Below, piece by piece: positions 1-3,340 of a DNA stretch of 3,340 bases; position 1 is the first letter of the stretch, and each line of letters starts with the position of its first letter. The notes under the pieces were generated by a model that saw only the letters and a program-made list of their open reading frames with translations, made no database searches and had not been told where the DNA came from. The translations under genes were made by a program, and so were the position numbers. This DNA comes from Escherichia coli (GTDB taxonomy: Bacteria; Pseudomonadota; Gammaproteobacteria; Enterobacterales; Enterobacteriaceae): NCBI RefSeq assembly GCF_003334815.1, contig NZ_QOWO01000083.1; one strand, written 5' to 3'.

Positions 1-102
1 GCTGAACTGTTGCTGGAAGACTACAAAGCCTCCCTGAAATATCTCAGCGATCACCCGAAACTGCAGGGTATTGCCCAACAGAACAGCTTTAAACATACCT
101 GA
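1..102 (+). CDS. gadB: 3' end of glutamate decarboxylase (partial; N-terminus lies upstream of the window)
   Basis: Frame 1 is open from base 1 and translates to [33 protein letters not shown], ending at TGA 100-102 with a second in-frame stop TAA at 103-105. This matches my memory of the E. coli GadA/GadB C-terminus; gadB rather than gadA is inferred because gadC follows directly. Identity is from recall, not a search. Confidence 0.85.
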
Positions 103-122
103 TAACGTTTAACGGTAACGGT

Positions 123-148
123 GTCCCGAAACGAACCCGTTTCGGGAC
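123..148 (+). other. Stem-loop in the gadB-gadC intergenic RNA: 11-bp perfect stem (GTCCCGAAACG / CGTTTCGGGAC) with 4-nt loop AACC, no U-tract after it
   Basis: Direct reading: bases 123-133 are the exact reverse complement of 138-148. The downstream sequence is AATTTCC, so it is not a canonical intrinsic terminator; it could be a partial attenuator, a processing site, or a 3' stabiliser of the gadB message. Confidence 0.5.
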
Positions 149-191
149 AATTTCCAAAGTCTGTTCACTGGCATTAGCAACGGAAAATATT

Positions 192-212
192 GTTCTGAAT
201 ACGCTTCAGAAC
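192..212 (+). promoter_or_regulatory. Perfect 8-bp inverted repeat GTTCTGAA-N5-TTCAGAAC in the gadC leader
   Basis: Direct reading: 192-199 is the reverse complement of 205-212, with spacer TACGC. It sits about 45 nt upstream of the gadC start. Function is unknown; it could be an RNA hairpin or a dimeric protein-binding site. Confidence 0.3.
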
Positions 213-246
213 AAAACAGGTGCGGTTCCGACAGGAATACCGTTTT

Positions 247-252
247 AGGGGG
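247..252 (+). promoter_or_regulatory. Shine-Dalgarno sequence for gadC (AGGGGG)
   Basis: Purine-rich AGGGGG ends 5 nt before the ATG at 258, which is canonical spacing. Confidence 0.7.
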
Positions 253-257
253 ATAAT

Positions 258-1793
258 ATGGCTACATCAGTACAGACAGGTAAAGCTAAGCAGCTCACAT
301 TACTTGGATTCTTTGCCATAACGGCATCGATGGTAATGGCTGTTTATGAATACCCTACCTTCGCAACATCGGGCTTTTCATTAGTCTTCTTCCTGCTATT
401 AGGCGGGATTTTATGGTTTATTCCCGTGGGACTTTGTGCTGCGGAAATGGCCACCGTCGACGGCTGGGAAGAAGGTGGTGTCTTCGCCTGGGTATCAAAT
501 ACTCTGGGGCCGAGATGGGGATTTGCAGCGATCTCATTTGGCTATCTGCAAATCGCCATTGGTTTTATTCCGATGCTCTATTTCGTGTTAGGGGCACTCT
601 CCTACATCCTGAAATGGCCAGCGCTGAATGAAGACCCCATTACCAAAACTATTGCAGCACTCATCATTCTTTGGGCGCTGGCATTAACGCAGTTTGGTGG
701 CACGAAATACACGGCGCGAATTGCTAAAGTTGGCTTCTTCGCCGGTATCCTGTTACCTGCATTTATTTTGATCGCATTAGCGGCTATTTATCTGCACTCC
801 GGTGCCCCCGTTGCTATCGAAATGGATTCGAAGACCTTCTTCCCTGACTTCTCTAAAGTGGGCACCCTGGTAGTATTTGTTGCCTTCATTTTGAGTTATA
901 TGGGCGTAGAAGCATCCGCAACCCACGTCAATGAAATGAGCAACCCAGGGCGCGACTATCCGTTGGCTATGTTACTGCTGATGGTGGCGGCAATCTGCTT
1001 AAGCTCTGTTGGTGGTTTGTCTATTGCGATGGTCATTCCGGGTAATGAAATCAACCTCTCCGCAGGGGTAATGCAAACCTTTACCGTTCTGATGTCCCAT
1101 GTGGCACCAGAAATTGAGTGGACGGTTCGCGTGATCTCCGCACTGCTGTTGCTGGGTGTTCTGGCGGAAATCGCCTCCTGGATTGTTGGTCCTTCTCGCG
1201 GGATGTATGTCACAGCGCAGAAAAACCTGCTGCCAGCGGCATTCGCTAAAATGAACAAAAATGGCGTACCGGTAACGCTGGTCATTTCGCAGCTGGTGAT
1301 TACGTCTATCGCGTTGATCATCCTCACCAATACCGGTGGCGGTAACAACATGTCCTTCCTGATCGCACTGGCGCTGACGGTGGTGATTTATCTGTGTGCT
1401 TATTTCATGCTGTTTATTGGCTACATTGTGTTGGTTCTTAAACATCCTGACTTAAAACGCACATTTAATATCCCTGGTGGTAAAGGGGTGAAACTGGTCG
1501 TGGCAATTGTCGGTCTGCTGACTTCAATTATGGCGTTTATTGTTTCCTTCCTGCCGCCGGATAACATCCAGGGTGATTCTACCGATATGTATGTTGAATT
1601 ACTGGTTGTTAGTTTCCTGGTGGTACTTGCCCTGCCCTTTATTCTCTATGCTGTTCATGATCGTAAAGGCAAAGCAAATACCGGCGTCACTCTGGAGCCA
1701 ATCAACAGTCAGAACGCACCAAAAGGTCACTTCTTCCTGCACCCGCGTGCACGTTCACCACACTATATTGTGATGAATGACAAGAAACACTAA
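258..1793 (+). CDS. gadC: Glutamate:gamma-aminobutyrate (GABA) antiporter, APC superfamily, acid-resistance system 2
   Basis: Uninterrupted 512-codon ORF (511 aa plus TAA) with a strong SD. The translation is highly hydrophobic with many predicted transmembrane segments. The N-terminus [22 protein letters not shown] and the His/basic-rich C-terminal tail ending [10 protein letters not shown] match my memory of E. coli GadC (XasA). Position directly after gadB fits the gadBC operon. Confidence 0.96.
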
Positions 1794-1817
1794 CCATGTC
1801 TGAATGGTTATAAGACA

Positions 1818-1846
1818 AGGGAGCGATAATTCATCGCTCCCTTTTT
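1818..1846 (+). terminator. Rho-independent terminator of the gadBC transcript
   Basis: Direct reading: 10-bp GC-rich stem AGGGAGCGAT (1818-1827) / ATCGCTCCCT (1833-1842), 5-nt loop AATTC, then a run of five T (1842-1846). It starts 25 nt after the gadC stop codon. Confidence 0.8.
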
Positions 1847-1862
1847 CGTGCTTGCTGTCGTA

Positions 1863-1923: not shown

Positions 1924-3243
1924 ATGGATATCTGCTCCCGAAACAAGAAATTAACGATTAGAAGACCAGCGATACTAGTTGCACTGGCACTTTTACTGTG
2001 TAGTTGTAAAAGCACGCCTCCAGAGTCCATGGTGACACCACCAGCAGGTTCAAAGCCACCAGCCACGACGCAACAATCGTCACAACCGATGCGTGGCATC
2101 TGGCTGGCCACGGTTTCTCGGCTCGACTGGCCACCGGTTTCCTCGGTTAACATTAGTAACCCCACCAGCCGGGCCCGTGTACAACAACAGGCGATGATCG
2201 ACAAACTGGATCATCTGCAACGTCTCGGCATAAACACGGTCTTTTTCCAGGTCAAGCCGGACGGTACCGCCCTGTGGCCATCGAAAATTTTGCCGTGGTC
2301 CGATCTTATGACCGGTAAGATTGGTGAAAATCCGGGTTACGATCCGCTGCAATTTATGCTCGACGAAGCCCACAAGCGTGGGATGAAAGTACACGCCTGG
2401 TTTAACCCCTATCGCGTATCGGTTAATACGAAGCCCGGTACTATCAGGGAACTGAATAGCACTCTGTCTCAACAACCGGCGAGCGTCTATGTGCAACACC
2501 GCGACTGGATCAGAACGTCTGGCGATCGCTTTGTCCTCGACCCGGGCATCCCTGAGGTTCAGGACTGGATCACATCAATAGTCGCAGAAGTGGTTTCCCG
2601 CTATCCCGTAGATGGCGTGCAGTTTGACGACTATTTCTATACGGAGTCACCGGGTTCACGGCTAAATGATAACGAAACGTACCGTAAATACGGAGGCGCA
2701 TTTGCGTCAAAAGCAGACTGGCGGCGCAACAATACTCAGCAGTTAATTGCAAAGGTATCGCACACCATTAAAAGCATTAAGCCGGGAGTCGAATTTGGTG
2801 TTAGCCCGGCAGGCGTGTGGCGTAACCGATCACACGATCCGCTCGGTTCCGATACCCGAGGCGCGGCAGCCTATGACGAATCCTACGCTGACACCCGTCG
2901 ATGGGTGGAACAAGGATTGCTGGATTACATTGCTCCCCAAATTTACTGGCCGTTCTCACGGAGTGCCGCGCGTTATGACGTGTTGGCAAAATGGTGGGCG
3001 GATGTCGTTAAACCGACCAGGACCCGCCTGTATATCGGTATCGCCTTCTATAAAGTGGGTGAACCTTCAAAGATAGAGCCAGACTGGATGATTAACGGCG
3101 GCGTACCGGAACTGAAAAAGCAGCTCGATCTTAACGATGCTGTGCCCGAAATTAGCGGCACCATCTTGTTCCGTGAGGACTATCTGAATAAACCGCAGAC
3201 TCAACAAGCGGTCAGCTATCTGCAAAGTCGCTGGGGCAGTTAA
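1924..3243 (+). CDS. digH: Outer-membrane lipoprotein with a glycoside-hydrolase-like family 10 (GHL10) domain; divisome-associated glycan hydrolase YddW/DigH
   Basis: Uninterrupted 440-codon ORF (439 aa plus TAA). The N-terminus has a basic n-region (SRNKKLTIRR), a hydrophobic core (PAILVALALLL), and a Cys-containing lipobox-like motif (LLCSC), followed by a Pro/Ser/Thr-rich linker. The rest is a soluble domain rich in aromatic and acidic residues, typical of a TIM-barrel glycosidase fold. Size and position next to gadC match E. coli yddW as I recall it. There is no in-frame start between the upstream stop (1864-1866) and ATG 1924, and none between 1924 and the lipobox, so the start is well constrained even though the SD is weak (GGAA about 10-13 nt upstream). 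Confidence 0.9.
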   Translation: MDICSRNKKLTIRRPAILVALALLLCSCKSTPPESMVTPPAGSKPPATTQQSSQPMRGIWLATVSRLDWPPVSSVNISNPTSRARVQQQAMIDKLDHLQRLGINTVFFQVKPDGTALWPSKILPWSDLMTGKIGENPGYDPLQFMLDEAHKRGMKVHAWFNPYRVSVNTKPGTIRELNSTLSQQPASVYVQHRDWIRTSGDRFVLDPGIPEVQDWITSIVAEVVSRYPVDGVQFDDYFYTESPGSRLNDNETYRKYGGAFASKADWRRNNTQQLIAKVSHTIKSIKPGVEFGVSPAGVWRNRSHDPLGSDTRGAAAYDESYADTRRWVEQGLLDYIAPQIYWPFSRSAARYDVLAKWWADVVKPTRTRLYIGIAFYKVGEPSKIEPDWMINGGVPELKKQLDLNDAVPEISGTILFREDYLNKPQTQQAVSYLQSRWGS

Positions 3244-3276
3244 ACTCCCATTCTTACTTTGTACTGATGAATCCCC

Positions 3277-3300
3277 TAATGATTTTTATCAAAATCATTA
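3277..3300. promoter_or_regulatory. Perfect AT-rich palindrome TAATGATTTT-N4-AAAATCATTA in the intergenic region downstream of digH
   Basis: Direct reading: 3277-3286 is the exact reverse complement of 3291-3300, with spacer TATC. It is too AT-rich and lacks a GC stem and T-run, so it is not a convincing intrinsic terminator; a dimeric regulator-binding site in the next gene's promoter region is more likely. By recalled synteny the next gene would be dosC, whose start is outside the window. Confidence 0.3.
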
Positions 3301-3340
3301 AGTTAAGGTAGATACACATCTTGTCATATGATCAAATGGT

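Follow-up and report, generated by a model that had tools for sequence, protein, structure and literature searches.

Leaky internal intrinsic terminators are said to tune the stoichiometry of operons, as told of T1 in rpsU-dnaG-rpoD and, reportedly, in Rend-seq surveys such as that of Lalanne et al. from 2018. The protection of malE is classically said to be due to the REP hairpins between malE and malF, an attribution that reportedly goes back to Newbury et al. in 1987. In the malEFG operon, the malE segment is selectively stabilised after cleavage (summarised in PMC8081044). E. coli transcripts also end just past U-poor stem-loops, by which they are shielded from PNPase and RNase II (Dar & Sorek 2018, NAR; PMC6061677). 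In Salmonella, the 3' UTR of adiA is the source of the sRNA AdiZ. The most powerful acid-resistance system of E. coli has gadBC at its core. The cotranscription of the two genes is reported in the literature, and they are usually drawn as a two-gene operon regulated by its promoter only. Here, we analyse a hairpin located between these two genes, next to which RNA 3' ends map, and compare it with the systems listed above.

The gadB hairpin and the RNA 3' ends beside it

The window, meaning the whole stretch of E. coli DNA that was analysed (3,340 nt), contains the end of gadB, the gadB-gadC spacer, gadC and the gene that follows. Window position x corresponds to position 1570747 - x of the MG1655 genome (NC_000913.3), minus strand. 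The features of the window are as follows.

100-102, plus strand: stop codon TGA of gadB, whose last 102 nt are in the window (stop at NC_000913.3 position 1570645)
110-115 and 116-121, plus strand: two tandem copies of TAACGG in the gadB 3' UTR
122-149, plus strand: hairpin with a perfect 12-bp stem and the 4-nt loop AACC (folding, about -21 kcal/mol), defining a 3' end and putatively protective
149-159, plus strand: zone of mapped RNA 3' ends, with ..GGGACAAUUU-3' at 153 and the dominant end at 155 in the TRS re-analysis
190-214, plus strand: second perfect hairpin of the gadB-gadC spacer, 10 bp, arms TTGTTCTGAA and TTCAGAACAA (folding)
247-260, plus strand: Shine-Dalgarno sequence (AGGGGGA) and ATG start codon of gadC
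258-1793, plus strand: gadC (list of open reading frames)
1817-1847, plus strand: terminator hairpin and U-run at the operon end, after gadC, with a 3' end mapped at 1847
1924-3243: digH (yddW), the gene after gadC

An earlier note on this DNA had described a perfect 11-bp stem 20 nt past the gadB stop and without a T-run. The description is correct, except that the stem is actually 12 bp long: the arms GTCCCGAAACG (123-133) and CGTTTCGGGAC (138-148) form 11 perfect pairs around the loop AACC (134-137), and T122 pairs with A149 to give a 12-bp stem with seven G-C pairs. The 11-bp stem is followed by AATTTCC (149-155), with no U-run, and the hairpin is located 19-20 nt past the gadB stop and 108 nt ahead of gadC. 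Folding of positions 100-160 returned the hairpin as both the MFE (-22.7 kcal/mol) and the centroid (-20.7 kcal/mol) structure, and alternative structures do not outcompete the stem. The folding z-score of this segment is -3.2, none of 200 shuffled sequences was as stable, and the hairpin was retained when folded in a 236-nt context. A perfect stem of at least 11 bp with a loop of 3-8 nt is expected by chance 0.003 times per 3340-nt random sequence under a first-order Markov model.

RNA 3' ends directly past the stem are present in two independent published Term-seq experiments, performed in different labs with different strains and media. In the data of Adams et al. 2021 (eLife, PMC7815308; growth in M63 glucose), a 3' end is listed at 1570594(-), i.e. 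window position 153, with an average of 33,817 reads and the 61-nt context ...GTCCCGAAACGAACCCGTTTCGGGACAATT[T]CCAAAGTCTG (Supplementary file 1, sheet 'M63 0.4'). It is listed for M63 only and not in the LB sheets, and it carries the label 'orphan' because, at 51 nt past the stop, it falls just beyond the 50-nt limit that this study sets for 'primary' ends. In the TRS re-analysis of the Dar & Sorek Term-seq data, a terminus spans 1570588-1570598 with the dominant end at 1570592 (window 149-159, dominant 155); it is significant in 3/3 replicates and assigned to gadB under the class 'Alternative primary in TU'. The TERMITe tables hold no gadB entry. The ends at 153 and 155 are 4 nt and 6 nt past the 12-bp stem, and the two experiments together place the ends 4-7 nt beyond it. 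At the end of the operon, the gadC terminator (arms AAGGGAGCGAT and ATCGCTCCCTT, then the U-run) has its Term-seq ends at 1568900(-) in Adams et al. 2021, which is window position 1847, and at 1568896 in TRS; a simple consensus terminator scan missed it. The 1568900(-) end has 70,553 reads in the same M63 sheet, against 33,817 at the hairpin, which makes the hairpin end major but partial. Since the ends map there and the stem is not outcompeted, a 3' end is formed at the hairpin within gadBC; the note, too, had taken the hairpin for an intra-operon element. This 3' end is already in published supplementary tables, and we found no paper discussing the hairpin: a full-text search of the literature for a gadB-gadC stem-loop, a terminator, a gadB-only transcript, RNase E processing or a RIL-seq signal returned nothing specific to the element.

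A canonical intrinsic terminator has its in vivo RNA end about 7-9 nt from the base of the stem; the end positions at gadB are compatible with exonuclease stalling or with the trimming of terminated RNA. The main rival to the explanation that we favour below, and the less likely of the two, is that the hairpin and the following AAUUU are a leaky intrinsic (Rho-independent) terminator that releases some polymerases at about 153-158 and lets the rest reach gadC. A strong GC-rich stem followed by three U's would suit this explanation, as would the distance of 4-7 nt between stem and ends, which resembles the +6 distance that this dataset shows for the gadC terminator. The hairpin also has about half of the reads of the operon-end terminator, as partial termination predicts. 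On the other hand, the tail AATTTCCA has only 3 T in 8 nt, with A's at the positions proximal to the stem, and the site was not called by the consensus scan.

Other elements of the window were considered as well. The sequence ahead of gadC predicts that its translation starts independently of gadB. A scan of the spacer found no usable internal gadC promoter: the sole promoter-like match (228-257) was discarded, as a transcript from it would begin at the start codon or within it. The window is closed by an IS10 terminus (CTGATGAATCCCCTAATGATTTT..., 3263-3340) inserted 20 nt past the digH stop, which gave a partial match to RNA-OUT (35 bits, E = 2.6e-4). MG1655 has instead a hairpin that resembles a digH terminator (ACAAGCCGGTG...CACCGGCTTGT), and the digH-IS10 junction is absent from all complete E. 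coli genomes in the collection.

Conservation in Escherichia and recurrence in other genera

The 86-nt hairpin region occurs once per genome in 5406 complete E. coli genomes, being identical in 3541 and carrying one to four differences in 1863. A search with a 40-nt query (E-value limit 10) placed the hairpin at 5414 positions in the 5406 genomes, with a median of one per genome, and this single copy excludes a dispersed REP/BIME palindrome. Five of the approximately 5400 matches to the gadB-gadC spacer are on plasmids, not chromosomes. In sampled E. coli variants the changes fall in the loop (AACC, AAGC, CACC) or in the pair that closes it, and the loops of other species are CACC in Escherichia sp. 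E1V33, AATC in E. whittamii and CTCT in strain E69, the last with an additional A-to-G change that produces a G.U pair in the stem. In E. albertii (GCCCCGGGCCGACATCTTGTCCCGGGGC) three pairs of the stem are altered on both sides and the pairing is intact. In the species representative MOD1-EC7003 the stem is weakened. The compensatory changes within Escherichia all belong to one lineage, and we consider them supportive rather than decisive. Palindromes can gain paired changes through template-switch mutation, which could in principle account for E. albertii instead of selection on the RNA. The tail behind the stem is variable (AATTTCC, AATTCC, AAATTCC, AAACTCC) and its UUU is not conserved: close relatives with AAUUCC, AAAUUCC or AAACUCC have lost it and keep the hairpin, which argues against a leaky terminator.

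The whole gadB-gadC spacer is about 93% conserved in Escherichia. Just 5' of the hairpin, the single-stranded GUAACGG is invariant in 11 Escherichia sequences, and this motif, along with the defined 3' end, would agree with the release of the gadB 3' UTR, a stretch of about 50 nt closed by the hairpin, as a regulatory sRNA, for which AdiZ offers a precedent in another acid-resistance decarboxylase gene, adiA. We consider this very unlikely. The hairpin is without the U-tail required by AdiZ-like, 3' UTR-derived sRNAs of the Hfq type, no covariance model of Rfam 15 matched positions 100-260, with the E-value limit set as high as 10, and no mention was found in the RIL-seq-related literature; moreover, with the spacer at about 93%, the invariance of 7 nt says little.

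The tandem TAACGG at 110-121, pointed out by the note as a minor oddity, is indeed present. E. coli isolate 368_BP0078 carries three copies, and in other Escherichia species the first unit is imperfect. This copy variation points to replication slippage and not to function, and the repeat is probably incidental. It was also considered as an anti-terminator and rejected, given that it has only 5 bp of complementarity to the 3' arm of the hairpin, far weaker than the 12-bp stem. The second hairpin of the spacer (190-214) is invariant in six sampled E. coli sequences; read on the minus strand, with TATTTTCC behind it, it is called terminator-like. As a conserved partner of the gadB hairpin it was dismissed, since it shows mismatches and no covariation in other Escherichia species. 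An RNase E-like motif (AU/AUU) lies immediately 5' of it.

To look beyond Escherichia, we scanned one genome per species with GadC, yielding 80 loci. In 67 of these, gadB immediately precedes gadC, and 10 of the 67 have a spacer shorter than 50 nt. A hairpin of -10 kcal/mol or stronger is present in 56 of the 57 spacers of at least 50 nt, and in 48 of the 57 the first 70 nt past the gadB stop beat 95% of dinucleotide shuffles (median z -3.2). These hairpins start at a median of +17 from the stop (within 30 nt in 46/56), while their distance to gadC varies widely (quartiles 38 and 86.5 nt). No sequence relationship links the hairpins of different genera; among the members of one group the stem persists and the loop differs, and an independent hairpin family in Providencia and Proteus shows several compensatory pairs. 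Six of the ten spacers below 50 nt had no stem-loop in the initial hairpin scan, so that the architecture is common and not universal. Beyond Escherichia, GadC shares about 70-81% identity with its E. coli counterpart and the adjacent GadB only about 51-64%, an unexpected asymmetry within one operon.

By one uniform rule, a T-run, counted as a run of at least four T within the final 16 nt of the hairpin or the 9 nt behind it, accompanies 6 of the 56 post-gadB hairpins versus 29 of 60 post-gadC hairpins at the same loci (Fisher p = 1.3e-5, for loci that are not phylogenetically independent). These proportions and the recurrence near the stop codon identify the recurring feature across genera as a hairpin just past the stop, and not a terminator. 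The near-universal presence of a U-poor hairpin after gadB is, in our view, a modestly new comparative observation. With regard to leaky termination, an equivalent hairpin does have a proper U-run in a minority of taxa, e.g. Yersinia rohdei, Serratia and Comamonas, and the T-run is missing from the other 50 of the 56.

The paralogous situation at gadA was also considered, gadA being the first gene of the gadA-gadX operon.

MG1655 about 3666119-3666158, minus strand: hairpin of 15 bp starting 22 nt past the gadA stop, with an A-run before and a U-rich tail after

Like the gadB hairpin, that of gadA is strong, follows a near-identical stop context by about 20 nt, and stands behind a gene that opens its operon and has a partner further down. 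It differs in being longer, in its upstream A-run and in its more U-rich tail, and the two are not homologous, as the similarity of their flanks ends 7 nt past the stop codon. Adams et al. 2021 list no 3' end for gadA.

Two further explanations can be weighed against these comparisons. A stable hairpin may act as a passive trap that collects fragments of gadBC decay at which exonucleases have stalled, with no selected function. Term-seq captures steady-state ends, decay intermediates included, and E. coli has numerous 'orphan' or internal ends, as such a trap would have it. We nonetheless judge it improbable, given that the pairing is kept through compensatory change both in Escherichia and in Providencia/Proteus, and that without selection it would be hard to obtain unrelated hairpins with a shared offset in 56 of the 57 long spacers and after gadA. 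The other explanation takes the perfect 12-bp inverted repeat with its 4-bp spacer as a DNA-level palindrome, either an operator for a dimeric protein or a cruciform. To this we assign the lowest probability of all: the half-sites of E. albertii differ at three positions and have kept their pairing alone, other genera have unrelated sequences at the same position, the RNA ends map exactly at the 3' side of the palindrome, and no promoter-like site is placed for control by it.

A putative exonuclease barrier at the end of gadB

We propose, with moderate confidence, that the 122-149 hairpin is an exonuclease-blocking stem-loop setting the 3' terminus of a stable gadB-only mRNA, which exists beside the full-length gadBC transcript. 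Transcripts would begin at the gadB promoter, and most RNA polymerases would continue into gadC. Where an RNA has a downstream end, produced by endonucleases that attack the spacer or the gadC portion or by occasional Rho-dependent or weak termination, PNPase or RNase II would then trim it 3'->5', stall a few nt past the stem and leave a stable gadB-only mRNA ending in ..GGGACAAUUU(CC). The offset of 19-20 nt from the stop may keep the stem outside the footprint of the terminating ribosome, so that it would stay folded. The gadB segment would thus outlast the gadC segment, and one promoter would yield the soluble decarboxylase in excess of the membrane antiporter.

The earlier note had offered three mechanisms, namely protection from exonucleases, partial termination and processing by an RNase. 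Protection fits best, because the pairing is conserved by compensatory change and the U-tail is not, and because the hairpins of other genera are mostly without U-tracts; partial termination is possible; and direct RNase cleavage at the mapped ends is not supported. RNase E-like RN/WUU motifs occur at 150/151, 172/173, 188/189 and 243/244, and none coincides with 153 or 155, which led us to reject direct RNase E cleavage as the source of the mapped ends. RNase III needs a duplex of roughly 20 bp or more, and a processing site for this enzyme was likewise rejected, the duplex having only 12 bp. As a point against trimming, a weak intrinsic terminator could also carry three U's and give ends 4-7 nt past the stem. 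Regarding the origin of the downstream ends, the C/G ratio is 1.0 for 149-228 and 0.8 for 149-257, with no bias of C over G, and the spacer not being C-rich, a Rho origin is not indicated. The Rho table of Adams et al. 2021 has no 15705xx or 15706xx entry, in LB data where gadBC is weakly expressed.

If the barrier that we favour operates, the hairpin would be expected to affect the GadB:GadC stoichiometry. The presence of a conserved, 3'-end-forming element inside the operon implies that control at the promoter is joined by a second layer, acting post-transcriptionally, and this layer could let far more soluble decarboxylase than membrane antiporter come from one promoter. It is relevant to the reading of gadB versus gadC in RNA-seq and reporter data, as well as to the engineering of GABA-producing strains. 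Because it is unique in sequence, covarying and provided with mapped ends, the gadB hairpin is a clean test case for termination versus exonuclease protection. A broader proposal, which we put forward as speculative and rather unlikely, would make the hairpin without a U-tract, about 17-20 nt past the decarboxylase stop codon, a maintained 'operon punctuation' module across Proteobacteria and at least one Firmicute (Pectinatus), setting the decarboxylase:antiporter ratio post-transcriptionally. Such a module might be tunable (through Rho, ProQ or an exonuclease, in acid or stationary phase) or might release an AdiZ-like 3' UTR fragment.

Comparison with known systems

With leaky internal terminators, the gadB element shares a hairpin between the genes of an operon, a partial 3' end and read-through downstream. 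It has the GC-rich stem and short loop of an intrinsic terminator; unlike these terminators, it is without the defining U-tract (about 5 or more U in 8 nt), and its tail is not conserved.

In structure, the element resembles the class reported by Dar & Sorek 2018, whose members have a stable, terminator-sized stem-loop without a U-run or an upstream A-tract and a precise 3' end a few nt downstream. All of these are found at gadB, where a stable stem stands next to a narrow 3' end, with few U's after it and no A-tract before it. The class differs in that its members are located at gene ends, depend on Rho and have more C than G downstream, whereas the gadB hairpin is intra-operon, requires read-through into gadC and precedes a spacer that is not C-rich.

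In position, the gadB hairpin corresponds to the malE-malF type, being intercistronic between co-transcribed genes. Unlike the REP/BIME elements of malE-malF, it has a unique sequence in single copy per genome. The mechanism class of protective or intercistronic stem-loops is well known, and the gadB hairpin, under the exonuclease-barrier reading, would work like the known examples. By analogy with malEFG, where a structure between cistrons lets the promoter-proximal segment outlast the distal one and leads to unequal expression, the gadB hairpin may let the gadB segment outlast that of gadC.
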